Position numbers and translations under genes: made by a program. 64,000 nt of DNA from NCBI GenBank assembly GCA_026395915.1, contig JAPLXU010000012.1, forward strand, positions 8,996-72,995. The letters run 5' to 3'. This stretch comes from Candidatus Nomurabacteria bacterium. Its GTDB lineage: Bacteria > Patescibacteriota > Minisyncoccia > Phycocordibacterales > UBA9973. Shown piece after piece: positions 4,098 to 64,000 of the stretch (positions are counted from its first letter, which is position 1; the number at the start of each line of letters is the position of its first letter). The notes beneath the pieces were generated by a model. The model worked only from the letters and a program-made list of their open reading frames with translations. It made no database searches and was not told the DNA's origin.

Positions 4098-4664
4098 TTA
4101 TAAAACCGAGGAAAGCTTTTCAAAACCATTTTCATCAAAAAGAATAGTTTTTAGGTTTGGACATTTTGTCATATCAAGATCTTCAAAAAATTTAATTTTA
4201 TCATCAACGAAAATAATTTGTTCGCCTTTGTTTTCTTTGCATATTTTTTCGATAATTCCTTTTTTACTATGTGGTGCTACAAGAATTTCACAAAAATAGT
4301 CGTCAATATTGCTTCTTCTTATTTTATCCAATTGAAATTCTTCATCGCCACTTGTTACGATATAACAATTTTTTTTTCCAAGTTTTTTAATTATTTTGAG
4401 CAATTCGGTATTCGCTAAATTTAACGATAAACTCATTATCTTTTCGTAAATATCTTCTGTAGTATCTTTTTTTTTATTTTCACGCGTGAGAAGTGAAGAT
4501 AAAAACTCTTTCAAAGAGAAAGGGGTTCCCATACTTTTAAATTCTTCATAATATTTTTCTTCTGTATTTTTTGATATACTGATTTCTCCCAAACATCTAA
4601 AAATATTTTCTTTTAGTTTTTTCGTATCAAACAGCACATCGTCAAAATCAAAAATGAATTTCAT
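4098..4664 (-). CDS. HAD-superfamily hydrolase
   Basis: N-terminal 'FDFDDVLFDT' DxD motif of HAD phosphatases. 188 aa. Confidence 0.6.
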   Translation of the reverse strand: MKFIFDFDDVLFDTKKLKENIFRCLGEISISKNTEEKYYEEFKSMGTPFSLKEFLSSLLTRENKKKDTTEDIYEKIMSLSLNLANTELLKIIKKLGKKNCYIVTSGDEEFQLDKIRRSNIDDYFCEILVAPHSKKGIIEKICKENKGEQIIFVDDKIKFFEDLDMTKCPNLKTILFDENGFEKLSSVL

Positions 4665-14625: not shown

Positions 14626-14664
14626 AACATATTTCAGCTATAGCGTAAATGTGTAAATCGGAAA

Positions 14665-25421: not shown

Positions 25422-25448
25422 ATGATATTGTGTATACTAGCATATATC

Positions 25449-27046: not shown

Positions 27047-27131
27047 CTCCTCCTGAAACAATTTTTGAAAATACGCCCTCGAGGTCAACAGGACAGGGAA
27101 CCCACTTTTCTTAAAATTGTTTCAGGAGGAG
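27047..27131 (+). ncRNA. conserved structured intergenic element, copy 1 (19-bp perfect closing stem around a conserved 47-nt core)
   Basis: ctcctcctgaaacaatttt ... aaaattgtttcaggaggag encloses GAAAATACGCCCTCGAGGTC-N16-CACTTTTCTT. The 3' arm contains the purH Shine-Dalgarno AGGAGG. Copies 2 and 3 are listed below. Confidence 0.5.
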
Positions 27132-29111: not shown

Positions 29112-29675
29112 ATGGAAATGGCAAAGGATCTGAAAGTTGGCATAATAATGGGTTCGGATTCTGATTTGGAAGTAATGTCGGAAGCGGCAAAAGTGCTTGA
29201 AGAATTTGGTGTCTCCTATGAAATTACCGTTGTTTCAGCGCATCGAAGCCCAAATCTTGCGCACAAATACGCAACCAGCGCAAAAGATAAAGGAATCAAA
29301 ATTATCATCGCTGGAGCAGGCGGAGCAGCGCATCTCGCTGGAGTAGTGGCATCGCTCACGAGCTTGCCCGTCATCGGTGTGCCTATTAAAACAAAAAATC
29401 TAGACGGACTGGATTCACTTCTTTCAACAGTCGGAATGCCTCCCGGAGTGCCCGTCGCAACTGTCGGAATAAATTCTGCAAAAAATGCTGGGTTGCTAGC
29501 TATCCAGATGCTTGCGCTTTCAGATAAAAATCTCGATGACAAATTGGTGGCATATAAAAATAAACTTGAAAAAGACACAAAAATAAAAAGCGAAAAACTT
29601 CTGAAAGTCGGATATAAAAAATATTTACCTGCCCGCAATGCTTCAGGCATAGCTGATGCAGGCGGGAAGAAATAA
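29112..29675 (+). CDS. purE: N5-CAIR mutase / AIR carboxylase catalytic subunit, with a C-terminal extension carrying a GC-rich repeat
   Basis: 'GIIMGSDSD' is the PurE pattern, together with 'IIAGAGGAAHLAG'. The C-terminal 13 codons (29628-29666) are a copy of the 'PARNA..AGG' GC-rich element. Confidence 0.85.
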   Translation: MEMAKDLKVGIIMGSDSDLEVMSEAAKVLEEFGVSYEITVVSAHRSPNLAHKYATSAKDKGIKIIIAGAGGAAHLAGVVASLTSLPVIGVPIKTKNLDGLDSLLSTVGMPPGVPVATVGINSAKNAGLLAIQMLALSDKNLDDKLVAYKNKLEKDTKIKSEKLLKVGYKKYLPARNASGIADAGGKK

Positions 29676-33446: not shown

Positions 33447-35204
33447 ATGACTTTTAGAAATTTTTTAAAATTCGCCAATCGACATAAAAATAATGGGCAT
33501 GATTTTGTTGAACCGGACGAAATTTTTCTCGATTCAAAAAACTTACAAAACTTTGACCGCCAGCAATTTGAGGGCAGAATAGAAAAACCTATTTCAAAGA
33601 GAACTATTGTTTTTCTTGGTGCCTTCTTTTTTCTTATGATAATTATTTTTGGAACTCGGCTAATAGATCTCCAGGTGAAAAATGGAGACAGCTATAGGCA
33701 AAGAAGTGAAAACAATATTTTGCAAAAAGTGAATATTTTCGCCGAAAGGGGAGCCATCTATGATCGAAACAAAAAAGAACTGGTTTGGAATGAAAAAAGC
33801 GACAATGAGACAGGGGATCTATCTGAATTGTCATATACTCGCGCCTACCTATCTCCAGGATTTTCTCATGTGCTTGGTTATGTGAGTTATCCAACGAAGG
33901 ATCATGCTGGGAACTATTGGCAAGATGAATTCATTGGAAAGGACGGTCTCGAAAAAAAATATAATGACAAGATAAATGGCGAAAACGGTTCAAAGATAAT
34001 TGAAACTGACGCCAGAGGAAATATTCATTCTGAAAATATTGTTAATATGCCGAATCGTGGAAGCGATCTAGTAACGAGCATTGACTCTCGAATTCAGACT
34101 GAATTGTTTACTCTTATTAGAAACCTATCCGAAAGTAATAATTTTACAGGCGGTGCAGGAGTTATGATGAACGCGCAGAATGGAGAGATATTAGCTTCTA
34201 CTAGCTTTCCCGAGTATGACTCTGGGGTCCTTTCTTTAGGCAAAGATTCAAAAAAAATTAGCACATATGTGACTGACAAAAGAAAATTTTTTTTAGATAG
34301 AACTATTTCAGGGCTTTATACCCCTGGCTCTATCGTTAAACCTTTTTTTGCTCTAGGCGCTTTGACAGAAGGTGTAATTGATCAAAATAAAAAAATTCTT
34401 TCGACAGGTTCTATTTCCATTCCGAATCCATATTTTCCTGATCAAAAAACAGTTTTCAAGGACTGGCGAGTAAACGGCTGGACGAATATGGCTGAAGCGT
34501 TGGCTGTCTCTTCGGACGTCTATTTTTATGAAATTGGAGGAGGTTTTGAAGACCAAAAAGGACTTGGTATCACAAATATTGAAAAATACGCGAATCTTTT
34601 TGGCTTTGGTGATAGGACAGGAGTTGATCTTCCGGACGAAACAAAAGGCACGATTCCTAGTCCAGGATGGAAGGCGTTGAACTTCAAAGGAGATGCTTGG
34701 CGCATCGGAGACACTTATCATACAGCGATAGGCCAGTATGGATTTCAAGTTACTCCGATGGAAATGGCGCGAGCCGTCTCTGCTATCGCTAACTATGGCA
34801 AACTTCTGACTCCACATTTCCTACTGAATGACACCGAAATGCCTGCCCGCAATGCTTCGCATAGCGATGCAGGCGGGGAAAATCAAGTTACTCAAATAAA
34901 CATACCAAAAGAGTACTTTGATGTAGTTCACGAAGGAATGAGGCAAGCAGTAACAGACGGAACAGCAACTTCACTTAACGTGCCTTATGTAAAAGTTGCA
35001 GTTAAAACTGGTACAGCTCAAATCGGAGTAGCAAATAATAAAGTAAACTCCTGGGTTATCGGTTTCTTTCCGTATGAAAATCCAAAATACGCGTTTGCGG
35101 TAATGATGGAAGCCGGTCCGACAACAAATAGCGCAAACGCATCTACCATAATGCGTGAACTTTTAGACTGGATGTCCACCAACACTCCAGAGTATTTTCA
35201 ATAG
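33447..35204 (+). CDS. mrdA: class B penicillin-binding protein (PBP2-like peptidoglycan transpeptidase)
   Basis: 'SIVKPF' (SxxK), 'KTGTAQ' (KTG) and an N-terminal TM. Contains an in-frame GC-rich 'PARNASHSDAGGE' insert (34842-34877). Confidence 0.8.
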   Translation: MTFRNFLKFANRHKNNGHDFVEPDEIFLDSKNLQNFDRQQFEGRIEKPISKRTIVFLGAFFFLMIIIFGTRLIDLQVKNGDSYRQRSENNILQKVNIFAERGAIYDRNKKELVWNEKSDNETGDLSELSYTRAYLSPGFSHVLGYVSYPTKDHAGNYWQDEFIGKDGLEKKYNDKINGENGSKIIETDARGNIHSENIVNMPNRGSDLVTSIDSRIQTELFTLIRNLSESNNFTGGAGVMMNAQNGEILASTSFPEYDSGVLSLGKDSKKISTYVTDKRKFFLDRTISGLYTPGSIVKPFFALGALTEGVIDQNKKILSTGSISIPNPYFPDQKTVFKDWRVNGWTNMAEALAVSSDVYFYEIGGGFEDQKGLGITNIEKYANLFGFGDRTGVDLPDETKGTIPSPGWKALNFKGDAWRIGDTYHTAIGQYGFQVTPMEMARAVSAIANYGKLLTPHFLLNDTEMPARNASHSDAGGENQVTQINIPKEYFDVVHEGMRQAVTDGTATSLNVPYVKVAVKTGTAQIGVANNKVNSWVIGFFPYENPKYAFAVMMEAGPTTNSANASTIMRELLDWMSTNTPEYFQ

Positions 35205-35269: not shown

Positions 35270-35485
35270 ATGCGTAAAATATATTTGCTTTTGATTTTAG
35301 GTATATGGATAGCAATTTTGCCATATCTTGGCTTCCCAGATTCTTGGAAAAATGTCTTAGCGACTCTTTCTGGACTTGGGCTGATGATTATAAGTTATAT
35401 CTTTTATAAAGAAAACAAGGCGAGAGAAACAAAGAAAGAAACTTTTGATAATTTCTCAGAAAATAATGCAAATATCTTCAAATAG
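35270..35485 (+). CDS. small membrane protein (hypothetical)
   Basis: Two predicted TM helices. The start could also be further upstream at 35234. Low information. Confidence 0.25.
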   Translation: MRKIYLLLILGIWIAILPYLGFPDSWKNVLATLSGLGLMIISYIFYKENKARETKKETFDNFSENNANIFK

Positions 35486-36680
35486 TAGTATAAAAAATGC
35501 AACAATAACTCTAGCGATTTTAGGCGCTTTTTTTTTGGGCGCATATGTAGACAACCATAACCGTCCAGCGATAGACAAAGTATTTCTCGCCAACAAGGAA
35601 ATGGCTGTAAAGACTGAAGCCGATTTCTCTCCATTCTGGAAAGTTTGGAACACCATTAATGAAAAATACCCAAAAGCTGACAAAATAACCGACCAAGAGA
35701 GGGTTTATGGAGCCATTTCCGGCCTTATGGGCTCTCTTAATGATCCGTACAGCGTATTCTTTAGCCCTGACGACGCAAAATCCTTTGAAGACGAAATAGC
35801 TGGCAATTTTACTGGAATTGGTATGGAAGTCGGGATAAAGGATAAAATACTCACGGTTATTGCTCCGCTCAAAGATACGCCAGCCTACAGAGCGAACATT
35901 AAGCCCGGTGATAAGATTCTTAAAATCGACAAGACCGTTACTTCTTCTTTGGGCATCGAAGATGCAATAAAATTGATTCGAGGAGAAAAAGGTACACCGG
36001 TTACTCTCACAATTTTTAGAGAAGGAAACAAAGATCCGATTGAAGTTAGAATCGTGAGAGATACCATCAATGTACCAACTTTAGACACTGAGCTCCGACC
36101 TGATGGCATTTTCGTCATAAAACTTTACAGTTTCTCTGCTAACTCGGCTGATCTTTTCCGAAATGCTATGAAAAGTTTTGTTGAATCTAAAACTGACAAA
36201 TTGATTTTAGATTTACGAGGAAACCCAGGTGGATATTTGGATTCAGCCGTTGATATCTCAAGTTGGTTCTTGCCGAGCGGAAAGACAGTCGTGACTGAAG
36301 ACTATGGCAACAATCAAAAACCTGAAATATTTAGAAGTAAAGGTTATAACATCTTCAACGATAAGCTGAAATTTGTCATTTTAATAAATGGCGGTTCGGC
36401 CTCAGCGTCTGAGATCGTAGCTGGCGCCATGCAAGACAATGGGCGAGCGAAACTCGTAGGTAGCCAAAGTTATGGGAAAGGTTCTGTGCAAGAGGCCATA
36501 AAAATCACTCCGGACACTTTCTTAAAAATTACTGTCGCGAAATGGCTCACGCCGAATGGAACTTCTATTTCTGAGAAAGGCCTGACTCCAGATTATCCCG
36601 TAGAAATTACGCAAAAAGATTTGGATGCCAAAAAAGATCCGCAATTAGATAAAGCAGTGGAAGTATTATTAGGCAAATAA
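35445..36680 (+). CDS. ctpA: carboxyl-terminal processing protease (S41 family)
   Basis: PDZ domain. 'ILDLRGNPGG' S41 motif. Possible alternative start at 35466. Confidence 0.85.
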   Translation: MIISQKIMQISSNSSIKNATITLAILGAFFLGAYVDNHNRPAIDKVFLANKEMAVKTEADFSPFWKVWNTINEKYPKADKITDQERVYGAISGLMGSLNDPYSVFFSPDDAKSFEDEIAGNFTGIGMEVGIKDKILTVIAPLKDTPAYRANIKPGDKILKIDKTVTSSLGIEDAIKLIRGEKGTPVTLTIFREGNKDPIEVRIVRDTINVPTLDTELRPDGIFVIKLYSFSANSADLFRNAMKSFVESKTDKLILDLRGNPGGYLDSAVDISSWFLPSGKTVVTEDYGNNQKPEIFRSKGYNIFNDKLKFVILINGGSASASEIVAGAMQDNGRAKLVGSQSYGKGSVQEAIKITPDTFLKITVAKWLTPNGTSISEKGLTPDYPVEITQKDLDAKKDPQLDKAVEVLLGK

Positions 36681-36686
36681 TTTTTT

Positions 36687-36761
36687 CAGCAAACAATTTT
36701 CGAAAATACGCCCTCGAGGTCATAAGGATAAGGAACTCACTTTTCTTAAAATTGTTTACTG
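36687..36761 (+). ncRNA. conserved structured intergenic element, copy 2
   Basis: cagcaaacaatttt ... aaaattgtttactg stem (14 bp, 1 mismatch) around the core CGAAAATACGCCCTCGAGGTCATAAGGATAAGGAACTCACTTTTCTT. Lies 18 nt upstream of the rplI ATG. Confidence 0.5.
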
Positions 36762-36778
36762 AAAAATATAAAATAGAT

Positions 36779-37222
36779 ATGAAAGTAATATTTTTAAGCG
36801 ATGTGCCAAGAGTTGGGAAAAAATATGACGTAAAAGAAGTTAATGATGGTTACGCCATGAATTTTTTGTTGCCGAGAAAATTAGCAACTATGGCTACGCC
36901 AAAGGCTCTTGCAGAACTTGAAACAAGGAAGAAAGAGATCTCAATCGAGAGGGAAGTGCAAGAAGAACTTTTAATGAAAAATCTGGAAGAAATCAAAGGC
37001 AAGACTATCACAATCAAAGGCAAAACAAACGACAAAGGGCATCTCTTTTCCGCGATTCACAAAAAAGAAATTACTGAAGCGATGAAAGAGCAGAATCGCG
37101 CAGAAATTAGCGAAGAATTTATTATTCTAGAAAAACCAATTAAAGAAGTAGGGGAACACGAAATCCAAGTCTCAATAAAAGGCAAAAAGTCCTCGTTTAA
37201 GCTTCTCGTAGAGAAAATATAA
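36779..37222 (+). CDS. rplI: ribosomal protein L9
   Basis: 'MKVIFLSDVPRVGKKYDVKEV' N-terminus (start at the internal Met of the listed ORF). ~148 aa. Confidence 0.85.
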   Translation: MKVIFLSDVPRVGKKYDVKEVNDGYAMNFLLPRKLATMATPKALAELETRKKEISIEREVQEELLMKNLEEIKGKTITIKGKTNDKGHLFSAIHKKEITEAMKEQNRAEISEEFIILEKPIKEVGEHEIQVSIKGKKSSFKLLVEKI

Positions 37223-42690: not shown

Positions 42691-42850
42691 TCGCTAAAAT
42701 ACAATTCAAATACAACCCCTTATAAAATACCTTCAAGAACAATTCAGATGCAACCCCCTATTTCCCCCTTATCAGGGGGACTAAAATACCGAATACTGTG
42801 CTTTCGTATTTTCCCTCCCCTGATAAGGGGAGGATTAAGGAGGGGTTGAA
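42691..42850. repeat. composite GC-rich palindromic repeat, left copy (plus a partial upstream duplication) flanking the DUF559 gene
   Basis: ctaaaat-caattc..CAACCCC-(ccccc ttatca ggggg hairpin)-spacer-(cctcccc tgataa ggggagg hairpin)-GGGGTTG. The 7-bp terminal inverted repeat is CAACCCC/GGGGTTG. Confidence 0.7.
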
Positions 42851-43227
42851 TTCATGCATTTAATTTTTCCAATCAAATCCTCAGCAACACTCTCCGTGTC
42901 TGCCAGAATTTCTTCATTCGTGTATCTTATTATTTTTAATCCAAATTTCTGTTTTAATAAGTTATCTCTTTCTTCATCTCTTGTCTTTTGAAAAGTATGT
43001 ATTTTTCCATCAATTTCTATTGCAAGACCAAGTTTTGAGCAGTAAAAATCTACAACAAAGTGATCTATCGGTTTTTGTCTGGTAAATTTTAAGTTCGCTA
43101 GTTTTTTATTTTTTAAAATTTTACCCCAAAAAACCTTTTCAGCTTCAGTCGTTTTTTTTCGTAACTCTCTAGCGCGAGAAACTAAATTTTTATCATATGG
43201 AATATATGGGATATTGTATTTTTGCAT
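42835..43227 (-). CDS. DUF559 endonuclease-domain protein (Vsr-like fold family)
   Basis: 130 aa with the 'ARELRKKTTEAEKVFW' N-terminal motif typical of DUF559. The C-terminus (..KCMNSTPP) reads into the left repeat. Confidence 0.6.
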   Translation of the reverse strand: MQKYNIPYIPYDKNLVSRARELRKKTTEAEKVFWGKILKNKKLANLKFTRQKPIDHFVVDFYCSKLGLAIEIDGKIHTFQKTRDEERDNLLKQKFGLKIIRYTNEEILADTESVAEDLIGKIKCMNSTPP

Positions 43228-43242
43228 GAAGTTAATTATAAC

Positions 43243-43406
43243 CTAAAATGCAATTCGGTAGATAACTCAAACGCAACCCCCTTTTATCCCCCTTATCAGG
43301 GGGGGCTAAATACCGTTTCGTGCCTTTCGCAAGAACCGTTCTTGCAAAAACTTGCGAAAACGATCGCATTTTATTCCTCCCTGATAAGGGAGGTTAGGAG
43401 GGTTGA
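43243..43406. repeat. composite GC-rich palindromic repeat, right copy (direct orientation relative to the left copy)
   Basis: Same architecture as 42691-42850, with an extra internal palindrome gcaagaac-c-gttcttgc. Confidence 0.7.
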
Positions 43407-43454
43407 ATTTAGTTTTTTAGCACAATGATGGTTCTTGGGGAAATTTTAATTTGG

Positions 43455-44457
43455 TCAGCGGACGCAACGGAAGTAGCAACTAGTGATCTTATTGAAGCCA
43501 CCACTTGCGTTGCCACTGCTGAAACCTACGTACATAGCGCTCGTGGAACTAGCAGGTCGAGAAGTAGATGACCAGTAGTTGCTACTCGATGCAAAAGTGG
43601 GAAAATAGGTTACATTGGTAAATGGCACACTCGCGACTCCAAAGTCAACCAGACTGTAAAGCTCATATATATTCGGCAGGCGCCAACCGCTTCCGGGAAG
43701 CGCATCAGTATTAGCGTTGCAGTAGGTAAGCGCGTTTGCCCAAGTTACTGTCACGGCTGAACCAATCTCACAGTTAGTACCACTCAAACCAGCGGAGCAT
43801 TTTTGCCAGACAAGACCGGTAGAATTGTCTGTAATAGTGCCATCATTGTTGTCAGTGTAAGAGCGAGCTGTACCTTTTAATAACTCTCCATCTTGACCGG
43901 TGCCGGAGCAAGTTACGACAAAGCCTCCCGTGTCATAACAAATTGTTTGATTAGTTTTTAATAATCCGGCAGATCTGGCGTTTCCCGTCACTCCAAAAAT
44001 AGAAACATTATTTTTGATATCCCGTCACTCCAAAAATAGAAACATTATTTTTGATATTCCCAGCCTGAAGATTTGTATCTCCGGCAGTAGCAGTTTTAGA
44101 TCCAGAATAGATCCCATTTGGAATAGTAAAGGTAAGTAAGCCATTGCCTCCTGTGACATTAGAGCCAGCGCTTGGGATAGAGTTGTATATATCATCTAAT
44201 GTGTGCATTGTGGAACCGGGAGCTCCTGAAGGAGAATTGAATGAAGTGTTCTTTGTGGCAGAGGTGCCATTTGCTAGTTTTTGATAGATTTGTTCTAACG
44301 TATACATTCTGCCTGAAGTTGATGGAGAGCCTGGGGAATCTATGTTGCCTGCGTGGACGAAGACGTAGACTAGAGTGACAGAGAGGACTATGCTACAGAT
44401 TCCTGTTGTGAGCTTGTAGAGAAAGGAATTTGATTTTGGGTTGGGTTTATTAGTCAT
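43455..44457 (-). pseudogene. DUF1566-domain surface protein split by a 37-bp tandem duplication
   Basis: Two adjacent ORFs (44008-44457 and 43455-43991). Removing one copy of the 37-nt unit (43984-44020 = 44021-44057) joins them in frame (..SIFGVTG|NARSAGLLK..). 'GWRLPNIYEL' is DUF1566-like. Confidence 0.6.
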
Positions 44458-48780: not shown

Positions 48781-50553
48781 TCAATATACTTCCTGTTGAT
48801 AACATTTTTCACAGTAAACAATCTCAGGCCTGTCTGGAGAATAAGAAGTATCAAATTCGACTTCACATCTTTCTGTTCCATGAAAATGTTGACCGGTCGC
48901 TTGTGGTGAGCCTGCCAAACCACACATGCACGTTCTTTTCCATAATTTTAACGCAGGCATAGCTTTATATCTTTCGTAATAACGGCAGTTTGGACACAAA
49001 ATCGGAAGCGGTATGTTATGTTTTTTGTAAAAAAGAAGTTCGTAATTAGTTAAACGAAAAGCGACGTTGCATTGTTGATCGCACTTCCCTTCGTGCGCAC
49101 AACCCAAAACTTCGTTCAAAATTCCGTCATTCACTTCGCCTATGTTGTCTGGAATTTTTTCTGCAGAAACTGTAACATTAAATTTCTTTGCTTCAGACTC
49201 ATGCCAAGGATAACTTTTTTCTTCCGCCGTCTCTTTTGAGAGAGGAAAAAATTCTTGCGCCAAAGTTTCATTGTATGCCCAAGGTGAAAGTTCAATCGGG
49301 AAAAATTCTCCATATTTATAGATTCTCCCCTTTTTATCTTTGAAAGGAATATCGTTCATCTGCCTTATTATTTCTTCGCGTAATTTAGCAAATTCTTTTT
49401 TCGAATAAACTTTATTAAAAATTGCGTTCTCAGCGTTCCTGAGTGAAATACAGCCGAGAATATTCGTACAATCCTTACAAGACTCAGTATAGTCCGCATT
49501 TCTCACCGATTCCAACGCAGAATAAGAAAACTTAACATTGTAATCATTCATAGCGCCAGTAGCATATTCATAAAGTAATTCTGATTTACCAACATGATCA
49601 AGATCCATGCAATCTTTGAAATCAAATGCTCGGTAACAATATTTCGCATTCTCTACATTATATATTTCAAAACAATTTTTGGCATTTTTAACATTTAGAA
49701 GATTATTGCCCGTCACATTGACGCATTTGTTAATGTTGGCAAATCTAAAAATTGCTTTCTCCTTAATTTTTTTAAATTCTTCAGCCAAGATCTGACGCGA
49801 AGCTCTGCTTTTTAGATTGAATTTTTCAAATTCTTTTAAATACTCTTCCCTAGAATATTGTTCGTTACGAATGCAAAACTTTTTATTGCGCAGATTGCTT
49901 GATAAAAAACAATTGCTGCAATTCACACAGTCAACAAGATAATATGAGTCTAAACAACCTCTGCAAAGCAAAAGATACTGGGAATTATAATTCCCCTGCC
50001 CTTCAACATTCTCATATAAACTTTCCGATCCATTTATAACATTAAGACAATCAACAATATCTCTTGATTTATCTATAGACTTTGAATAAAAAATATTTTC
50101 CGATTCCTTTACAACTGAAACAGATAAATAAACATTTCTTGATTCTCCAACCAAATTAGCATAATCGCAATTGATTGCATTCCTCTGCCACAAAGCCAAA
50201 CGCGGAACAGTTTTCGAAAATTCTCTATACTGCTCAAAAAATGGCTTGGAAAAATCGTAATCTCGCCCATAAGATTCTGCATCCCATTTATCTCCATACC
50301 AACATTCTCGACAATAAACCGGAAAAGGTGCAGATTCGTGATGTATAGAAATTATATTCTTTCCACAAAGATTGCAAATACGACGATACAAAGATCTTTC
50401 GTTACGCCAAGCAAAACGTCGTATCTGTCGACACTCTGGGCAAAAAGTCGGTGGTGGAACTTTTATTTTTTCATAAAACGAAAAATCATCTGACTCAATC
50501 GTAAAGTCTTTTTTGCAGTTTTGACAGATTTTGTTTTCGATTTTTTGTTCCAT
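48781..50553 (-). CDS. cysteine-rich protein, paralogue 3
   Basis: 590 aa. N-terminus 'ICQNCKKDFTIESDDFSFYEKIKVPPPTFCPECR'. C-terminus '..IVYCEKCYQQEVY'. Confidence 0.7.
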   Translation of the reverse strand: MEQKIENKICQNCKKDFTIESDDFSFYEKIKVPPPTFCPECRQIRRFAWRNERSLYRRICNLCGKNIISIHHESAPFPVYCRECWYGDKWDAESYGRDYDFSKPFFEQYREFSKTVPRLALWQRNAINCDYANLVGESRNVYLSVSVVKESENIFYSKSIDKSRDIVDCLNVINGSESLYENVEGQGNYNSQYLLLCRGCLDSYYLVDCVNCSNCFLSSNLRNKKFCIRNEQYSREEYLKEFEKFNLKSRASRQILAEEFKKIKEKAIFRFANINKCVNVTGNNLLNVKNAKNCFEIYNVENAKYCYRAFDFKDCMDLDHVGKSELLYEYATGAMNDYNVKFSYSALESVRNADYTESCKDCTNILGCISLRNAENAIFNKVYSKKEFAKLREEIIRQMNDIPFKDKKGRIYKYGEFFPIELSPWAYNETLAQEFFPLSKETAEEKSYPWHESEAKKFNVTVSAEKIPDNIGEVNDGILNEVLGCAHEGKCDQQCNVAFRLTNYELLFYKKHNIPLPILCPNCRYYERYKAMPALKLWKRTCMCGLAGSPQATGQHFHGTERCEVEFDTSYSPDRPEIVYCEKCYQQEVY

Positions 50554-50601
50554 AACTTTTTCACTTTAGTTTAGTAAAGTCTGAGCAAGGACTCCCCTTG
50601 C

Positions 50602-52302
50602 TCAATACACCTCTTGCTGATAACACTTCTCACAATAAACTATCTCAGGTCTATCAGAAGCATAACTGGTTTCGAATTCCACCTCGCAACGTCCTTCGTG
50701 ATGAATGTGTTTTTTGTCACACATGCATTGTCTATGCCAGAGTTTGTTTGGCCCGCGATTTTTTAGACGTGTTTCATGCCGACATTCAGGACAATTCCGC
50801 GGGATAGGTATTTTCATTCTTCTATAAAAGCTCAGCTCATCTGCAATAATTCTATAATTTTTATTGCATTCTTTACACACAAAAACTTCTTTGCTCACAT
50901 TAAAATCAGTAGGCAACTCTGAAATTGAATCAGGAAAATTTTTCCAAACTATAGTTTCTTTACCATAATTACCTCGCGGTGTATCTTCCCATTTGAAACC
51001 TTGAGCCAAAGCTTGTTCTTTTGTTAGTGGAAATTCATCCACAACAGAAGATTCGTTGTAACCATAAGGAGATAATTCTTTCGGAAAAAAGTTTCCGTAA
51101 ATCTCTTCTTGTTTCATTCGTTCAATAATTTCAGTACGTAATTTTATGTATTCCTCCTTACTGTATTGTTTATTCAAAATGCAATAAGATCCTTGAATTA
51201 AACCAGCACAACCAAAACAATTATTGGAATTCGGGCAGTTCAAACAATATTGCATAAAACTTGATTCCCAACAATAATAACTACATATTATATTTGAGCA
51301 TTGCATACCTATGTTCAAAGAATTATAGACAAGTTCCGCTGTTCTCCCTGATGTATTGCAATCCATGCAATTTTTTGCTACACGCCAAGCGTGTATACAA
51401 TATGCATTGTCTTCCGCGTCATAAGAATGGAAGCAATAACGATTATTTTTTACATTCGTCATGTAATTACCAGTAGAATTGACAACATTAAAAACTTCAG
51501 CGAATTTTCTTGGTTTATTTTTTATAAAATTTCTAAATTCTTTTTTAAAATTTTCTACTCCTGAATGTGTGTCTAGTTTAAATGATTTTAATTTTTCTTC
51601 GTATTCTTCTTTTGTGTAAGGTTCGTTGAAAATGTGATATTTTTGCTGACGTAAATTGATACATCCAAGACAATTGGTGCATCCTCGGCAATCAAACAAA
51701 AAGGCACTATTAAGACAACTGTAACAACCTTTACAAAAACGCAAGGAATGGCAATCATAACAATCATCAACTTCGTAAGAAAGTTCTACTTTATTTGTAA
51801 AAGAACAATCAACTAATTCTTTAGAGAGTTGTATCCAGTAACAATTTATGCAATTCTCATTATTTGAGCTCTCCATAATCATGTAGCAATTTTTTGTATC
51901 GGCAGTGTGATTAAGATATTCAGAATTGATACTATTCATATGGACCAGAGCTGGTTTTGGAACTTTCTGCCATAATTCATTAAATTGTTTAAAGAACGAT
52001 TTTTTAGGATCATATTCCATACCGTAATTTTTTCCTTTTAAATCATCGCTGCGCCAACACTCATGACACCATACAGGATAAGTTTTATTTGCACTAAACA
52101 TAGAAATAGTGCTTCTCTTGCAATTATCACAGTTGCGCTTATAAAGAAACCTTTCGTTTCTAAAAATTAGTCTTAGTTGCGAACGGCATTCCGGACAAAA
52201 AGTCGGCGGTGGAACTTTGATTTTTTCGTAGAACGAAAAATCATCTGGCTCTATGGTGAAGTCTTTTTTGCAGTTCTGACATTGTCTCGTTTCACTTTTC
52301 AT
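50602..52302 (-). CDS. cysteine-rich protein, paralogue 4 (tandem with paralogue 3)
   Basis: 566 aa. Same N- and C-terminal modules. The GC-rich hairpin tgagcaagg-actcc-ccttgctca overlaps its stop (50582-50604). Confidence 0.7.
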   Translation of the reverse strand: MKSETRQCQNCKKDFTIEPDDFSFYEKIKVPPPTFCPECRSQLRLIFRNERFLYKRNCDNCKRSTISMFSANKTYPVWCHECWRSDDLKGKNYGMEYDPKKSFFKQFNELWQKVPKPALVHMNSINSEYLNHTADTKNCYMIMESSNNENCINCYWIQLSKELVDCSFTNKVELSYEVDDCYDCHSLRFCKGCYSCLNSAFLFDCRGCTNCLGCINLRQQKYHIFNEPYTKEEYEEKLKSFKLDTHSGVENFKKEFRNFIKNKPRKFAEVFNVVNSTGNYMTNVKNNRYCFHSYDAEDNAYCIHAWRVAKNCMDCNTSGRTAELVYNSLNIGMQCSNIICSYYCWESSFMQYCLNCPNSNNCFGCAGLIQGSYCILNKQYSKEEYIKLRTEIIERMKQEEIYGNFFPKELSPYGYNESSVVDEFPLTKEQALAQGFKWEDTPRGNYGKETIVWKNFPDSISELPTDFNVSKEVFVCKECNKNYRIIADELSFYRRMKIPIPRNCPECRHETRLKNRGPNKLWHRQCMCDKKHIHHEGRCEVEFETSYASDRPEIVYCEKCYQQEVY

Positions 52303-52350: not shown

Positions 52351-52902
52351 CTATTCTCCTATTTTATTTTCCTCTTCTAAACTTTCTGAGGCAACATTAA
52401 TAGAATTATTCACTTCACCATAATCCGGCAATTCATCTACAGATTTTATACCCATATACGATAACAATTCAAAGCTGGGTTTGTAAATATAACGCCTGCT
52501 ATCTTTTGGATCAAGTATTCTTTCTATCAATCCGCGAACAGATAATGCTCGCAAAGTGAAACTGGAATTGACTCCCCTTATATAATCGATCTCCGCTCGG
52601 TTCGCACCATTTTTATAAAGAATAATGGATAATGTTTCCAAACTTGCTTTTGAAAGTTCTTTGTTCAGTTCTTCTTTTTGCAATTCTTCAAACAAACTTG
52701 ATAATTCTGGCGCTGTGCCAAGCGCAATATCAGAATCTTTTTCAATCAATACTATTCCTCTCTCTTTTAAATTGTTTTTTAATCTAAGAACGCCTTCATT
52801 CATTTCCGCCTCCTCAACTTTTAAAATCTCTGCAAGTTTCTTTCGCGACATTGGTTCTCCTTTCCAAAACAGTATAGCTTCTATTTTTGATTCTAAATTC
52901 AT
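52351..52902 (-). CDS. scpB: segregation and condensation protein B
   Basis: 'IEAILFWKGEPMSRKKLAEIL' winged-helix pattern. 183 aa. Directly downstream of scpA. Confidence 0.85.
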   Translation of the reverse strand: MNLESKIEAILFWKGEPMSRKKLAEILKVEEAEMNEGVLRLKNNLKERGIVLIEKDSDIALGTAPELSSLFEELQKEELNKELSKASLETLSIILYKNGANRAEIDYIRGVNSSFTLRALSVRGLIERILDPKDSRRYIYKPSFELLSYMGIKSVDELPDYGEVNNSINVASESLEEENKIGE

Positions 52903-52916
52903 AATTATTGATCTAC

Positions 52917-52997
52917 GTTCTGTGAAGGATTTTAAGAAAAGTGGGTTCCCTGCCCTTAAGACCTCGAGGGCGTATTTTCAAAAATCCTTTACAGAAC
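52917..52997 (-). ncRNA. conserved structured intergenic element, copy 3 (minus strand, fills the scpA-scpB spacer)
   Basis: Minus strand: gttctgtaaaggatttt-GAAAATACGCCCTCGAGGTCTTAAGGGCAGGGAACCCACTTTTCTT-aaaatccttcacagaac. 15 nt upstream of the scpB ATG. Overlaps the scpA stop. Confidence 0.5.
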
Positions 52998-53729
52998 GTT
53001 TGTATTACTTTTTTCCTGCTTACTAATAATAATATCGGCGAAACCATTTTCTTGAATCGCGTCAAGTATCCCGTTTCTGACGAGCTCCAGCATCGCCAAG
53101 AACCCGACTATCACAAACAATTTCTCTTCTCGAGTTGTCGCTTTACCAGCAAAACTTTTGAAGCTTGTTTGAATGGAACTTTGTATTCTATCGGTCAGTT
53201 TACCAATCATTTCCTCAATGCTAATAACTTTTTTCACTTCCGCTTCCGGCAAGAATACTTTTTTGGGCATTCCTCCCAGAACATTCCGAGCAAAATTCAT
53301 CATGCTGTCTTTTGTAATTTGAGTATCCGGCAAAAAAACCAAAACATCATTTTTTCTTTCGAGAGGCGCGAAAATCATTTTCTCGCCAAACATATTTTTT
53401 ACATTTCCTCCGAGTTTCGTAAAAAGTTCATACAGTCGCAAGCGTTCTTCTAAACTCTTTATATCGCCCTCTTCCTCCGTCGTGAGACTCAAATTCGGCA
53501 AAAGCGATTTTGATTTAATGAGAATCAAAGTCGAAGCCACCAACACGAAGCTAGCAATCTCAGCCCTGCCCAGACCTCCGAGTTTGTTCATGTAGCCCAA
53601 GAAATCTTCAGTCACAGTCGCAAGCGACACATCGTTTATGAAAAGTTTTCGTTTTTCCACTAGTTCCAAAAGCAACCCAAAAGGGCCTTCGAAACCTGCT
53701 ATTTTTGCCGTATAACTTCCTGTTTCCAC
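52989..53729 (-). CDS. scpA: segregation and condensation protein A
   Basis: 'FEGPFGLLLELVEKRKL' ScpA N-terminal motif. 246 aa. Confidence 0.85.
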   Translation of the reverse strand: METGSYTAKIAGFEGPFGLLLELVEKRKLFINDVSLATVTEDFLGYMNKLGGLGRAEIASFVLVASTLILIKSKSLLPNLSLTTEEEGDIKSLEERLRLYELFTKLGGNVKNMFGEKMIFAPLERKNDVLVFLPDTQITKDSMMNFARNVLGGMPKKVFLPEAEVKKVISIEEMIGKLTDRIQSSIQTSFKSFAGKATTREEKLFVIVGFLAMLELVRNGILDAIQENGFADIIISKQEKSNTNVL

Positions 53730-53751: not shown

Positions 53752-56433
53752 GTGAAAAAGAAAAATGATAAAAAAAGCGTCCGCCTCTCCAAAAACGTCG
53801 TTCCTGTTGAATACGACATACAATTACAACCGGACTTGGACAATTTTACTTTTGAAGGCGTTGAAACTATCACCCTCTCTATTCTGAAACCGACTAAAAC
53901 ACTAACTCTCCATTCAAAAGAAATTGAAATAGAAACAGCTTCCATAAACAAAGATTCTCAAAAAATGTTCGCAAAAATTTCTTATGACGAGAAAAATGAA
54001 ACTGTGACTTTTGCTTTTCCTGAAACTATTCTTTCAGGAAAAACTAAACTGACCATAGTTTTCAGAGGAATTCTCAATGACAAAATGCGAGGGTTTTATA
54101 GGAGCAAATATACTATCAAAGAAAAAGACTACCATTTAGCGACCACACAATTTGAAGCTACCGATGCGCGAAGAGCTTTCCCTTGTTTTGATGAACCAGC
54201 GCAAAAAGCCATTTTTAATGTTTCTCTCATTGTCCAAAAAGGCAAGACGGCTATCTCAAATACTTTGCCAGTATCTGTCGCGGAACACGATGCTGAATAC
54301 GAAATAGTAAAATTTTCTCCAACGCCGAAAATGTCCACTTACTTGCTCGCATTTATTGTAGGAGACTTTGAATGTCTGGAATCAAAAACTACTCCCACCA
54401 CCTCGTCCTTCAGACACTCCCCCTCAGGCAGGGGGAGAAGTATACGAGTTCGTGTCTTTACCACTCCAGGAAAAAAACATCAAGCCAAATTCGCGCTTGA
54501 TTGCGCGATAAAAACTTTAGAATTTTACGAAAAATATTTCGACATCGCCTATCCTCTGCCCGTGCTCGACATGATAGCTATCCCAGACTTTACAGCCGGA
54601 GCAATGGAAAATTGGGGCGCAATCACGTATCGCGAAAGCGCTATCTTGGTCGATGATGATCATTCTTCGCTCTCAAACAAACAATGGGTGGCACTCATAA
54701 TTGCTCACGAAATATCGCATCAGTGGTTCGGTAATCTAGTGACAATGGAATGGTGGACTCATTTGTGGTTGAACGAGGGATTTGCTTCTTATCTTGAATA
54801 TTTGGCCGTCGATAAACTTTTTCCAAAATGGGATATTTGGACACAATTTATTACTAGCGAACTCTCCTCAGCTTTACGTTTAGATTCTCTCCTTAATACC
54901 CACCCGATAGAAATACCAGTGCATCATCCCGCAGAAATCGGCGAAATATTCGATGAAGTGTCTTATTCAAAAGGAGCGTCAATCATCAGAATGCTTGCGG
55001 ACTTTTTGGGAGAAAAAGATTTTCGAGACGGTTTAAGATTTTACTTAAAAAAGCATAGTTATAAAAATACGGAAACTATCCATCTCTGGCAAGCGTTTGA
55101 AAAAGTTTCAAAAAAGCCCAAAAAAAATGTGACAAAAATGATGCAAAATTGGACTTCAAAACCCGGCTATCCAATGATAAAAGCAGAGATTATAAATGAA
55201 AAATTAAATTTGTCGCAAGAGAGATTTTTTAGCAGTCCGATATCAAAGGCAAAAGCAAAAGAAAAAACCTTGTGGCAAATACCCGTTTCTATAAAAAATA
55301 GCAACACTGCGCGAAAATATCTTTTTAGCCGACTTTCGCAGGCTGTCGAGCCGAGAATGAGCGATTTTTCAGCAGAAAAATACGCGACGGCAAAAAAGAC
55401 ATTTTCGCGCAGTGACTATCAAAAAATAAATATTAGTGAAACAGGATTCTATCGAGTAAATTACTCAAAGGAACTTTTAGAAAAATTTAAAATACAAATT
55501 GAAAAAAAGTTATTACCAGCGCAAGACAGACTTGGAATCATCAGAGATCTTTTTGCCTTAGCTGAAGCTGGAATTGTTTCAACAAAAGATACGTTAGAGT
55601 TTTTAGCAAGCTATAAAAATGAAGACAATTACACAGTTTGGCTTGAACTTGCAACGGGTCTCGGACGAATTGAACAACTTTTTGCAAAAGAATCGGTTAA
55701 GAAAGAAGAGCTAAACAACCTTATCTTAAATTTATTTTCTCCTCTTGCAAACAAACTCGGTTGGGAAAAAAAGAAAGGAGAAACTCACACCGACGTGCTC
55801 TTGCGCTCACTCGTCATCACTCGAGCCGGACGTTCTGGTGATATAAAAATAATTGCTGAAGCGAAAAATAAATTCACGGCCATGCAAAAAGGTAAACACA
55901 TTGATCCAGACGTTCGTGGTGCTGTCTATGCGACTATCGCAAGAAACGGTGGAATGAAAGAATATCAAACTCTTCTCAAGCGATATAAAGAAGAAACCTT
56001 ACATGAAGAAAAAAACAGGATTGGAAACACTTTGGGAGATTTTCAAGAAACTAAAATTTTGAAACTTGTTTGCGAATTCGCTATGTCAAAATATGTCAGG
56101 GCCCAAAATACTATCGCCATCATTTCGGCTGTTGGAGCAAATCCGTTAGGCAGAGATATCTGGCTAAATTTTGTTCAAAAAAATTGGAAGACACTTGTCT
56201 CGCGTTATGGCGACGGTGGTCATACGCTAGCACGACTTGTGAAAGCCATAGGCGGAAGCGCAGAAGAAAAACACTTAAAATCATTCAAAAAATTCTTCAA
56301 AACTCATTTTGCGCCTGGAGCCGAGAGAGCGATAGAACAAGTATTGGAACGTCTTGAGAGCAATATCGCTTGGTTGAGAAGAGAAACGAAAAAGCGTCGC
56401 GGGAAACCCACGACGCTTGTGGCCAAAAATTGA
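53752..56433 (+). CDS. pepN: aminopeptidase N (M1 family)
   Basis: 'GAMENWG' exopeptidase motif. 'HEISHQWFGNLVTMEWW..NEGFA' zinc site. Contains an in-frame GC-rich hairpin insert at ~54400-54442. Confidence 0.9.
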   Translation: MKKKNDKKSVRLSKNVVPVEYDIQLQPDLDNFTFEGVETITLSILKPTKTLTLHSKEIEIETASINKDSQKMFAKISYDEKNETVTFAFPETILSGKTKLTIVFRGILNDKMRGFYRSKYTIKEKDYHLATTQFEATDARRAFPCFDEPAQKAIFNVSLIVQKGKTAISNTLPVSVAEHDAEYEIVKFSPTPKMSTYLLAFIVGDFECLESKTTPTTSSFRHSPSGRGRSIRVRVFTTPGKKHQAKFALDCAIKTLEFYEKYFDIAYPLPVLDMIAIPDFTAGAMENWGAITYRESAILVDDDHSSLSNKQWVALIIAHEISHQWFGNLVTMEWWTHLWLNEGFASYLEYLAVDKLFPKWDIWTQFITSELSSALRLDSLLNTHPIEIPVHHPAEIGEIFDEVSYSKGASIIRMLADFLGEKDFRDGLRFYLKKHSYKNTETIHLWQAFEKVSKKPKKNVTKMMQNWTSKPGYPMIKAEIINEKLNLSQERFFSSPISKAKAKEKTLWQIPVSIKNSNTARKYLFSRLSQAVEPRMSDFSAEKYATAKKTFSRSDYQKINISETGFYRVNYSKELLEKFKIQIEKKLLPAQDRLGIIRDLFALAEAGIVSTKDTLEFLASYKNEDNYTVWLELATGLGRIEQLFAKESVKKEELNNLILNLFSPLANKLGWEKKKGETHTDVLLRSLVITRAGRSGDIKIIAEAKNKFTAMQKGKHIDPDVRGAVYATIARNGGMKEYQTLLKRYKEETLHEEKNRIGNTLGDFQETKILKLVCEFAMSKYVRAQNTIAIISAVGANPLGRDIWLNFVQKNWKTLVSRYGDGGHTLARLVKAIGGSAEEKHLKSFKKFFKTHFAPGAERAIEQVLERLESNIAWLRRETKKRRGKPTTLVAKN

Positions 56434-62061: not shown

Positions 62062-63585
62062 ATGAAAATAAAGATGCAAAATGAGCAACAAAAGATAGGC
62101 TTTTTTATTAAAGAATTACGCGAACACCGCGGAATGACACAAGAAGAACTCGCAAAAGCTCTCAATACTTCTCAAAGCTCAATTCCAAGAATGGAAAAAG
62201 GTGAGCAAAATTTCACCACAGAATTACTCTCAAAAATAAGTAATGTTTTAGACCATCAAATAGTTTCAATAAATGATTCAATAGACTTTCAAGTGAACGG
62301 AGGTAAAAAATTGAGCGGGACAATTAAAACAAATTTTTCCAAAAACGGTTCGGTGGGTCTTCTTTGCGCGTCGCTTTTAAACAACGGAACAACGACCCTG
62401 CATGGTATTGCTCGAATTGAAGAGGTTTATAGAGTAATTGAAATTCTAGAAAGCATCGGCGTTATCGTAAGATGGCTCAATCAAAATACCTTGACTATCA
62501 CGCCTCCAAAAAAATTCAATTTAGAAAATATCAATACAGAATCAGCAATCAAAACTCGCTCTGTCGTGATGCTCATGGGACCTCTCGTCCATAAACTGTC
62601 TTCCTTCTCGATTCCCCACCCGCACGGATGCAATTTAGGCAAAAGAACAATTGCAGCTCATATTTACGCGCTTGAAAAACTTGGAATAAAAATTAAAACC
62701 ACTAGCGAAAAATATGAAATTACGGCTAAAAGAATGAAATCAGCAGAAATAGTAATGTACGAATCTGGAGATACTGCCTGCGAAAATGTTTTGACTGCCT
62801 CGGCACTTATCCAAGGCGAAACAAAAATAAATTTTGCCAGCGCAAATTACATGGTGCAAGAAGTTTGTTTCTTTCTCGAAGCTTTGGGTGTAAAGATCGA
62901 TGGTATAGGCACTGCCAGTCTAACTGTCTACGGGATAAAAGAAATCAACAAAGACATTGAATATTGGAACAGCGAGGACCCTATAGAATCAATGATGTTT
63001 ATTTCAGCTGGAATTATTACTGATTCAAAACTTACAATTACTCGAGCACCGATTGACTTCTTGGCGCTTGAATTGGAAAAATTAAAAAGAATGAATTTAA
63101 AATACAAAACTTCGAAAGTTTATTATTCATTTAACGGCAGAACAAAACTTGTCGATATAGAAATATTTCCAAGTAAATTAATTGCGCTGAATGACAAACT
63201 TCATTCAAATCCCTATCCGGGAATAAATATAGATAACCTGCCTTTTTTTGTGCCAGTTGCTATCAAAGCCAAAGGACAGACCATGATTCACGATTGGGTT
63301 TACGAAAATAGAGCTATATATCTTACAGAATTAAATCGTCTAGGCGCAGATATTACTCTCGCTGATCCGCATCGTCTATATATCAATGGTGGTACGCCTC
63401 TTCGAGGGGCCCAAGTAGTTTGCCCTCCGGCCTTGCGTCCATCAATGGTGATTCTCATCTCAATGCTTGGAGCAAGTGGCACTTCAATTTTGCGAAATGT
63501 CTATATGATAAATCGAGGTTATGAAGAAATCGCCGAAAGACTAAACTCCATCGGCGCAGATATTAAAATCATCAAAGGAAACTAA
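62062..63585 (+). CDS. murA: UDP-N-acetylglucosamine 1-carboxyvinyltransferase (MurA) with N-terminal XRE-type helix-turn-helix domain
   Basis: N-terminus 'LRELREHRGMTQEELAKALNTSQSSIPRMEKGE' is an XRE HTH. Then the EPT fold with the active-site loop 'HPHGCNLGKRT' (Cys present). 507 aa. Confidence 0.75.
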   Translation: MKIKMQNEQQKIGFFIKELREHRGMTQEELAKALNTSQSSIPRMEKGEQNFTTELLSKISNVLDHQIVSINDSIDFQVNGGKKLSGTIKTNFSKNGSVGLLCASLLNNGTTTLHGIARIEEVYRVIEILESIGVIVRWLNQNTLTITPPKKFNLENINTESAIKTRSVVMLMGPLVHKLSSFSIPHPHGCNLGKRTIAAHIYALEKLGIKIKTTSEKYEITAKRMKSAEIVMYESGDTACENVLTASALIQGETKINFASANYMVQEVCFFLEALGVKIDGIGTASLTVYGIKEINKDIEYWNSEDPIESMMFISAGIITDSKLTITRAPIDFLALELEKLKRMNLKYKTSKVYYSFNGRTKLVDIEIFPSKLIALNDKLHSNPYPGINIDNLPFFVPVAIKAKGQTMIHDWVYENRAIYLTELNRLGADITLADPHRLYINGGTPLRGAQVVCPPALRPSMVILISMLGASGTSILRNVYMINRGYEEIAERLNSIGADIKIIKGN

Positions 63586-63653
63586 TGCGCCTTTCGAGAA
63601 ATAACTTTTTGCGGGGTTTCGAGGCTGGCGAGCCGAAAACTTCAGGATTTTTT

Positions 63654-64000
63654 ATGCTTAAAAAAATCCGTACCAAAAAAAAGTTTATTTCTCGAAAGGC
63701 GCCGAGAGTTATTGTTATTCTTGGTCAAACTGCCACTGGCAAAAGTAATTTAGCAGTAAAAATCGCCCAAAAAATTAATGGCGAAATAATTTCAGCTGAT
63801 TCGAGACAAGTTTATAAGTGGCTTAACATTGGAACTGGAAAAATTACAAAAAAGGAAATGAGAGGAGTTCCTCATCATCTTCTCGACGTAGTAAAACCAA
63901 AAGAAAAATTCACTGTTGCTAAATACAAAGAATTAGCTGAAGAAAAAATTAAAGATATAATTTTTCGAGGAAAAACACCGATAATCTGTGGTGGCACAGG
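63654..64000 (+). CDS. miaA: tRNA dimethylallyltransferase (5' partial; continues past window end)
   Basis: 'VIVILGQTATGKS' P-loop. 'ISADSRQVYK..IGTGK' is also typical of MiaA. No stop within the window. Confidence 0.8.
   Translation, partial: MLKKIRTKKKFISRKAPRVIVILGQTATGKSNLAVKIAQKINGEIISADSRQVYKWLNIGTGKITKKEMRGVPHHLLDVVKPKEKFTVAKYKELAEEKIKDIIFRGKTPIICGGT

Follow-up and report, generated by a model that had tools for sequence, protein, structure and literature searches.

An 85-nucleotide hairpin between scpA and scpB of a Candidatus Nomurabacteria bacterium belongs to a lineage-restricted family of interspersed repeats

The window analysed here is a 64,000-nucleotide stretch of DNA from Candidatus Nomurabacteria bacterium (GenBank assembly GCA_026395915.1, contig JAPLXU010000012.1, positions 8,996 to 72,995 of the forward strand). 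Between its genes scpA and scpB lies a hairpin of 85 nt (window positions 52915–52999, minus strand), which is one member, designated copy 3, of a lineage-restricted family of interspersed hairpins of about 85–90 nt and not a built-in control element of scpAB. With moderate confidence, we regard the element as a non-autonomous mobile or duplicative hairpin repeat of Candidatus Nomurabacteria, resembling MITEs (miniature transposable elements with inverted repeats) and riding in the transcript. This reading is favoured because the element is multi-copy and insertion-polymorphic, has a narrow host range, forms shared subfamilies, has struck one junction twice and shows a near-neutral turnover of arms that stay Watson-Crick paired.

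Position and shape of the scpA-scpB hairpin

The spacer between scpA and scpB (52903–52988) is 86 nt long and is filled by copy 3, whose 5' arm covers the stop codon of scpA, as an earlier note on this DNA had described. The same note was right to count it as a third copy and to orient it with the operon, on the minus strand like both genes. It had recognised the element but drawn it 2 nt too short on each side (52917–52997), and the stem that it gave as 17 bp is present but measures 19 bp (P1; 52981–52999 with 52915–52933), with one A·C mismatch at 52990/52924 that is G·U on the plus strand. The parts of the element, the two genes and the other copies in the window are as follows.

52915–52999, minus strand: copy 3 as a whole (P1, P2, conserved centre, P2', P1'), 105 bits with the covariance model
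52981–52999, minus strand: 5' arm of P1, ACGUUCUGUAAAGGAUUUU, holding the last three codons of scpA and its stop codon TAA (52989–52991)
52975–52979, minus strand: 5' strand of P2, GAAAA, pairing over 5 bp with 52936–52940 (UUUUC); P1 runs on into P2
52941–52974, minus strand: conserved centre of 34 nt, UACGCCCUCGAGGUCUUAAGGGCAGGGAACCCAC, including the 8-bp palindrome CCTCGAGG at 52962–52969
52915–52933, minus strand: 3' arm of P1, AAAAUCCUUCACAGAACGU, ending 12 nt before the ATG of scpB (52900–52902)
52951–52982, plus strand: inner hairpin of the opposite strand, UGCCCUU, 8 nt, GAGGGCG, then UAUUUUCAAA; terminator-like, flagged for copy 3 only
52989–53729, minus strand: scpA (Pfam PF02616), the upstream gene
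52351–52902, minus strand: scpB (Pfam PF04079), the downstream gene
27047–27131, plus strand: copy 1, between guaA (25422–27026) and purH (27139–28623); P1 perfect over 19 bp
36682–36766, plus strand: copy 2, between ctpA (35466–36680) and rplI (36779–37222); P1 of 19 bp with one C·A mismatch

Read from 52999 to 52915, the minus strand is ACGTTCTGTAAAGGATTTT-T-GAAAA-TACGCCCTCGAGGTCTTAAGGGCAGGGAACCCAC-TTTTC-TT-AAAATCCTTCACAGAACGT. Its RNA fold has an energy of -32.8 kcal/mol (z = -5.0 against shuffles), the folding z-scores of the elements ranging from -3 to -6, and the 85-mer of copy 3 was not matched by any shuffle of the window.

Copies and distribution

Eight copies of 85–91 nt are known, three in the window and five in three other Nomurabacteria assemblies, namely Candidatus Nomurabacteria Baikal-deep-G186 (loci L011 and L038), GCA_040960315.1 (L048) and a 3-kb metagenome contig (L022). 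An 18-mer of the centre was used to scan 185,579 species-representative genomes. It gave 21 matches, about 17 being expected by chance on our own estimate, and the rest of the element was found in one genome only, Baikal-deep-G186, with two copies. A scan of JGI metagenomes returned one contig carrying the element, L022, and scans of viral contigs returned no copy. Further contigs were reached through homologues of ScpB, RplI and LTA-synthase, and L048 proved to hold two more diverged copies scoring 77.5 and 52.3 bits with the covariance model. In about 200 kb of sequence from nine or more related genomes there was no copy. Where the family occurs it is dense, with three copies in 64 kb, two in 15 kb and two in 18 kb, and the flanking gene pairs are functionally unrelated: guaA/purH, ctpA/rplI, scpA/scpB, flavokinase/EamA, rpmE/prfA and myg1/obg.

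Searches against Rfam 15 at the gathering threshold gave a tRNA as the only match in the window. At E≤10, for three regions and two loci, there were only generic long-hairpin (miRNA precursor) models at 12–24 bits. A weak match to freshwater-1 (14.5 bits, threshold 72) was absent at the other copies. The element reached the gathering threshold of no Rfam family, the twister-sister, HDV-like and riboswitch models included. A ZTP or other purine riboswitch upstream of purH was considered and rejected, the same element also preceding rplI, scpB, prfA, obg and the EamA gene.

Insertion at gene junctions

Relatives show empty sites at four of these junctions. The scpA and scpB genes lie 2 nt apart in L033 and overlap by 4 nt in L035; ctpA and rplI are separated by 4–5 nt in L040, L041 and L042 and by 23 nt in L043; and in L045 rpmE and prfA overlap as TAATG and myg1 and obg are 18 nt apart. 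The element, with both arms, is an insertion into 0–23 nt between co-directional genes. The empty ctpA/rplI and rpmE/prfA sites have neither of the arms, and therefore the whole hairpin came in; the alternative that a core was inserted into a pre-existing host hairpin is rejected for these two junctions, where the empty sites measure 0–5 nt and have no arms.

Since the genes of the relatives abut or overlap without it, the element is not needed for scpAB. The earlier note had argued for a transcript-level function in this operon (processing, translation coupling or attenuation) and had named beforehand, as findings that would speak against it, uniform read-through coverage together with the loss of the element from close relatives that keep the operon. 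Such loss is largely what was seen, and a dedicated role for scpAB is unsupported, given the empty relatives, the unrelated gene pairs elsewhere, and stems that lack G·U pairs in the mRNA and have four A·C mismatches there. Attenuation, translational coupling or cutting by RNase III may follow from the insertion but would not be the reason for it.

Two relatives, L031 and L032, have hairpins in the scpA-scpB spacer that are unrelated to the family. That of L031 (1267–1325) has an 11-bp stem around a AACTTTTGC...GCAAAAGTT / GCCCTAAGGC centre, and that of L032 (1175–1222) a 7-bp GC stem, the 5' arm being again formed by the last codons of scpA. A terminator-like hairpin was also seen upstream of purH in L041 (25–75).

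At the rpmE/prfA junction L022 and L049 have a member of one subfamily and L048 a member of another, which suggests repeated insertion at a single junction. In L049 the contig ends directly after rpmE, inside an apparent truncated and diverged relative of the element (4339–4379; CTCGTCGCAGGTGTACTTTT-T-AGAAA-GCCTTGCGCAGG...), and assemblies may tend to break at these hairpins.

By ScpA plus ScpB identity the window, L011 and L032 form a group in which L011 and L032 are the closest pair. The scpA stop codon has the same position in L011 and in the element-free L032. Since L011 and L032 are closest, the scpA-scpB copy must have been gained twice, or gained once and then lost or replaced in L032. 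For the window against L011, the third codon positions of scpA and scpB are 51–58% identical and the four-fold-type sites 44% (75/170), which is essentially saturated. The centre and conserved stem base of the two copies are identical at 52 of 57 positions, and four stem pairs have changes in both partners with pairing retained. The excess of identity in the centre therefore reflects either strong purifying selection, homogenisation of copies as by gene conversion, or recent independent, site-specific insertions at one spot.

Anatomy and covariation

P1 is 19 bp long in all but two of the eight copies, which have 20 and 22 bp. Its outer 9 bp are different in each copy, yet almost perfectly Watson-Crick within the copy, and its inner 10 bp (AAANRATTTT / AAAATYNTTT) are semi-conserved. 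The conserved unit comprises 57–67 nt, made up of the 34-nt core, P2 and the inner 10 bp of P1. Across genomes the inner part of P1 is the same in copies 1 and 2 and near-identical in L011a, L048a and copy 3, the outer 9 bp being unrelated.

In a model-based alignment of the eight copies 95.8% of the P1/P2 cells are paired and 18 of the 24 pairs change on both sides, a covariation reached by 0 of 500 shuffles and with no slid register close to it. The conserved pairs covary as well (P2 GAAAC/GUUUC in L048a, GCC/GGC in L048b), and the stem base AUUUU/AAAAU becomes AAUUC/GAAUU in L048b. The 34-nt centre is nearly invariant, with changes at only a dozen or so positions. It is accommodated about equally by two inner folds that are incompatible with each other (CCCU/AGGG plus GUC/GAC, or GCCCU/AGGGC), and no supported tertiary or pseudoknot pairing was found in it.

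Two further interpretations of these parts were rejected. CTCGAG occurs 16 times in the window and is thus not avoided, which disposes of a restriction-site signal, and the outer arms do not appear to be guides to another locus, since they have no second match within two mismatches in about 100 kb.

A possible role in the mRNA

All eight copies, at six of six independent loci, are co-oriented with both neighbouring genes (two-sided binomial p ~0.03). The first two window copies lie on the plus strand and the third on the minus strand, each following the local gene block. Because it is always co-oriented with the flanking genes, the element must be part of the transcript. Since copies on opposite strands each match the local genes, and GC skew just follows the gene strand, the orientation is tied to transcription; replication strand was rejected as its cause.

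This orientation is what a cis-acting RNA module of benefit to the host would show. In such a module the centre would bind a protein, and the helix of about 24 bp would serve either for processing or stabilisation of the RNase III type or for translational coupling, as a gate that opens when the ribosome stopping at scpA melts the 5' arm and uncovers the start region of scpB. We consider this explanation unlikely, although several features are in its favour. The 5' arm starts no more than 5 nt from the upstream stop codon in seven of the eight copies, and the 3' arm ends 7–18 nt before the downstream start codon. Structure at start sites should matter in this organism, which seems to start translation largely without Shine-Dalgarno pairing: a Shine-Dalgarno-like motif precedes only 4 of the 48 predicted starts in the window, one of the four being the 3' arm of copy 1. 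The centre is strongly constrained (52/57 against 44% at the four-fold-type sites), the length of the stem is constant, and a 3-bp inner helix follows the path U-A / U·G / C-G in the sense strand. The predicted RNA folds (-18 to -39 kcal/mol) have the shape of an RNase III substrate, the 19-bp P1 being stacked on the 5-bp P2 to give about two turns of double-stranded RNA, and in Correia elements the inverted repeats are where RNase III cuts (PMC2649163, PMC10969869).

Against this, the gene pairs on either side have no function in common, close relatives manage without the element, about 44 invariant nucleotides are more than a processing or coupling hairpin requires, and insertion into spacers of near zero length by itself produces the geometry with respect to stop and start codons. 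The stems, moreover, are not those expected of a structure maintained in RNA. The 192 P1/P2 pair cells include 184 Watson-Crick pairs and, read on the mRNA strand, not a single G·U. The four informative exceptions are A·C mismatches there (C·A in copy 2 and L048b, A·C in copy 3, and A·C in P2 of L011a), and all four are G·U on the other strand. This pattern favours a DNA palindrome and counts against selection for a structure in the mRNA, although the evidence on the strand is only suggestive because the numbers are small.

The mRNA strand of the element holds no intrinsic terminator, P1 being followed by mixed A/U and the inner hairpin lying 11 nt from UUUUC. The terminator scan flagged nothing at copies 1 and 2.

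The complementary strand

The strand complementary to the mRNA might itself carry the functional fold, either as an RNA that stops or insulates antisense transcription entering operons or as a single-stranded DNA form in transposition. To this we give a low probability, lower than to the RNA module. The informative P1/P2 exceptions are G·U on this strand (4 versus 0), together with one in the second hairpin family described below. The opposite strand folds equally well or better in all eight copies; for the consensus the values are -39.3 versus -34.9 kcal/mol on the mRNA strand, and for the centre alone -7.5 versus -3.5. Base composition was rejected as the cause, most other co-directional spacers of the window folding as well or better in sense. 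Only on this strand does the centre resemble a terminator, with a GC-rich inner hairpin and UAUUUUC after it. However, this motif is weak and was flagged in one of the three window copies, the strand comparison amounts to four to five observations (p ~0.06–0.1), and one inner pair favours the mRNA strand. No conserved promoter was found for an antisense RNA spanning the hairpin, the flanks being unrelated coding sequence.

Improbable readings: ribozyme, aptamer, promoter or operator

Covarying stems around a near-invariant 34-nt centre with conserved unpaired bases are typical of small ribozymes. A new small self-cleaving RNA, or a ligand- or protein-binding RNA, with variable stems around a conserved core would fit this plan as well as the presence of several copies between genes, and no Rfam family accounts for the element. 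We nevertheless think it improbable. A perfect outer stem of 19 bp far exceeds what a ribozyme needs, the centre has no supported tertiary or pseudoknot pairing and has two incompatible inner folds, the phylogenetic range is extremely narrow, and relatives dispense with the element. The hammerhead, twister, pistol, hatchet and HDV models gave no match to it even at E≤10.

A site acting as double-stranded DNA, either a promoter or an operator for a dimeric regulator of CCTCGAGG, is very improbable, even though CCTCGAGG occurs three times in the window, in the elements only, and most copies keep TAAAAT unchanged: L048a has a broken palindrome (CCTCGGAG) with the rest of the copy kept, duplex binding would leave the covariation of 24 pairs without a cause, and, as the earlier note had supposed in setting a promoter aside, the copies share no consistent sigma-70-like hexamer pair (no conserved -35 partner to a -10, and promoter scans that differ between copies with scores at the level of shuffles).

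A second hairpin family in the window

Two other places in the window have the same design, in which a copy-specific outer stem of 24–27 bp encloses a conserved centre with a three-way-junction fold.

55305–55414, plus strand: second-family copy of 110 nt with 27-bp arms and a structured centre of 56 nt, inside the open reading frame (ORF) of a peptidase M1 (pepN-like; 53752–56433)
63587–63702, plus strand: second-family copy with a 24-bp outer stem; the centre TTTCG.AGGCTG.CGAGCCGA.AA is shared and there is a covarying AU hairpin

The first is an in-frame insertion of about 36–40 codons, absent from three orthologues (L038, L035 and L033). As it lies in frame within pepN, an intercistronic function cannot account for this copy. 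In the second, the 5' arm follows the stop codon of the ORF 62062–63585, the centre holds the only in-frame ATG (63655) of a miaA-like ORF, and the 3' arm encodes part of the N-terminus. The one stem transition mismatch of this family is A·C on the gene strand. With this shared design it becomes more likely that the hairpins are a class of insertions in this genome rather than operon-specific regulators.

Comparison with known repeats

Published MITEs are AT-rich and intergenic and give stem-loop transcripts, and the direct repeats beside them fade with age (PMC10969869). The present element is likewise short, non-coding, multi-copy (eight copies) and polymorphic for presence or absence (empty sites at four junctions). 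Of its terminal repeats, the inner 10 bp of P1 and P2 are conserved or semi-conserved and the outermost 9 bp differ in each copy.

The Correia repeat-enclosed elements, which are MITEs of Neisseria, share with it the small size, non-coding and AT-rich nature, several copies and variable presence between related genomes. They too are intergenic and co-transcribed, with inverted repeats around a conserved core that give a long RNA hairpin, a potential substrate of RNase III (PMC2649163, PMC10969869). However, the ends of Correia elements and other MITEs are conserved transposase-binding sites, in contrast to the variable outermost 9 bp here, and the present element has no direct target-site duplication and no parent insertion sequence (IS) or transposase was seen in the sequence examined. 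It is also much smaller than Correia elements (85 nt) and strictly co-oriented with transcription.

REP sequences and REPINs, which are mobilised by REP-associated tyrosine transposases (RAYTs), are extragenic hairpin repeats with compensatory changes, for which a single-stranded DNA hairpin intermediate has been proposed and in which the whole hairpin replicates (PMC3116915). In REPINs, however, the outer arms (REP 16-mers) are conserved and the middle varies, and here this is reversed. The GTAG-type motif of REP is absent from the element, and no RAYT gene was found in the sequence examined. The Rickettsia palindromic elements (RPE) are palindromic repeats that have spread in a small, reduced genome and lie in frame in housekeeping genes, as does the second-family copy at 55305–55414 (PMC10969869). 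They differ in that the whole sequence is common to RPE copies, whereas the scpA-scpB family occurs at junctions only, and there is no sequence similarity.

ERIC sequences are intercistronic in operons, run the same way as the genes, touch the neighbouring stop and start codons and are conserved across species in an unexplained manner (PMC10969869). They are, in contrast, 127 bp long with conserved arms. MIRU repeats, reportedly described by Supply et al. in 1997, resemble the element in the same way, being intercistronic in operons, gene-oriented and in contact with stop and start codons, with an unexplained conservation across species. MIRUs carry small ORFs that keep translational coupling, whereas the present element has no start codon and no ORF spanning it.

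The intercistronic RNase III sites of phage T7 are related hairpins repeated between the cistrons of polycistronic mRNAs, and the stem here is long enough for RNase III. The T7 sites, however, are conserved parts of one operon; the present element, a putative substrate, is insertion-polymorphic. Integron attC sites carry R''/R' sites (RYYYAAC ... GTTRRRY) at their outer ends and belong to gene-cassette arrays next to intI. Here the ends are unrelated between copies and the flanking genes are housekeeping genes; the preference for the bottom strand is the sole resemblance.

Correia elements come closest to the element, REPINs are also near it, and RPE, MIRU and ERIC repeats have single features in common with it. 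The element is thus an interspersed palindromic repeat outside every named family, with an architecture that is the reverse of that of MITEs and REPINs. The genomes of Patescibacteria (the Candidate Phyla Radiation) are tiny and tightly packed, and interspersed repeats are not known to be a feature of the group. Our literature searches turned up no account of MITE- or REP-like elements there, and these bacteria go unmentioned in PMC10969869.

How the repeat may persist

If the element is a mobile repeat, the conserved centre would be the part recognised by whatever copies it. The long stem would be maintained as a DNA inverted repeat, intrastrand template switching correcting one arm against the other, and not through selection for a fold in the mRNA. 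The DNA hairpins are stable (-14 to -23 kcal/mol), and the folding of the opposite strand, as good as or better than that of the mRNA strand, also suits stems of a DNA type. Template switching in quasi-palindromes is established in principle, and such correction at the level of DNA is proposed here because the arms have no wobble pairs and turn over in a fast, near-neutral manner. The surviving insertions would be those at gene junctions, oriented so that the terminator-like inner hairpin and U tract stay out of the mRNA, as would suit a compact genome. In the scpAB mRNA the element would be a passenger, a hairpin of about 24 bp that begins at the stop codon of scpA. A ribosome terminating there may melt the 5' arm and re-expose the start of scpB, the genome being almost without Shine-Dalgarno sites (4/48), and in this way an insertion between genes that normally abut or overlap could be tolerated.

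Several points weigh against a mobile repeat of this kind. Neither the window nor any other locus examined has a transposase, a RAYT or a reverse transcriptase, and we know of no parent IS. The flanks of all eight copies show no direct target-site duplication, the variable 9-mers being inverted and not direct, and the outermost inverted repeats vary, unlike the terminal inverted repeats of MITEs. A resident selfish copy would be expected to decay, yet the centre of the scpA-scpB copies has kept 52 of 57 positions against 44% at four-fold-type sites. The constant 19-bp stem looks like a functional or mechanistic constraint, and neither it nor the origin of the copy-specific outer 9 bp is explained; the correction of the arms by template switching is something that we infer. 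The inner 3-bp helix, finally, shows its RNA-type path on the mRNA strand.

A mobile element of a new type in ultra-small Patescibacteria may also be envisaged, though we rate it as a minority possibility. Here a conserved structured centre would be copied into junctions (or, in the second family, ORFs) and every new copy would gain a perfectly complementary outer stem of its own, of 9 bp or longer, by a fold-back or templated step. Such a transposition would leave inverted rather than direct repeats at the flanks, with the strand complementary to the mRNA as the active folded one.

Other repeats and genes in the window

A gene with a DUF559 domain (Vsr-like endonuclease fold; 42835–43227, minus strand) is flanked by related CCCCTTATCAGGGGG hairpin repeats at 42754–42830 and 43278–43390, and a similar motif occurs at 11784–11818. 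The gene and its bracketing repeats may form a small mobile cassette. The adjoining 780 nt (43228–44007) lack a long ORF, have a strong fold (-245 kcal/mol) and no Rfam match, and at the end of this stretch lie two exact tandem copies of a 37-nt unit (43983–44056).

Short multi-copy repeats (CCTTTCGCAAGAACNGTTNTTGCGAAAGG hairpins and CCTGCCCGCAATGCTT...ATGCAGGCGGGG) were seen at 12723–12807, 26285–26315, 29603–29643, 34837–34878 and 43321–43349, the copy at 26285–26315 lying inside the guaA ORF. Four paralogous cysteine-rich ORFs of 554–590 amino acids form two tandem pairs (12961–16410, plus strand; 48781–52302, minus strand), one pair being directly downstream of scpB. Patches of their DNA are 70–80% identical. 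Of the two that were analysed with Pfam, 12961–14625 has a treble-clef zinc-finger domain and 48781–50553 has none.

Significance

A repeat wedged between overlapping genes with its centre nearly unchanged raises the question of how it is tolerated by an organism with almost no Shine-Dalgarno sites, and which enzyme copies the repeat is the second practical question. Annotation calls for caution, as such hairpins should not be taken for operon-specific regulators. The combination of a conserved middle with perfect outer stems peculiar to each copy, found in two families, may point to an insertion mechanism that has not been described.
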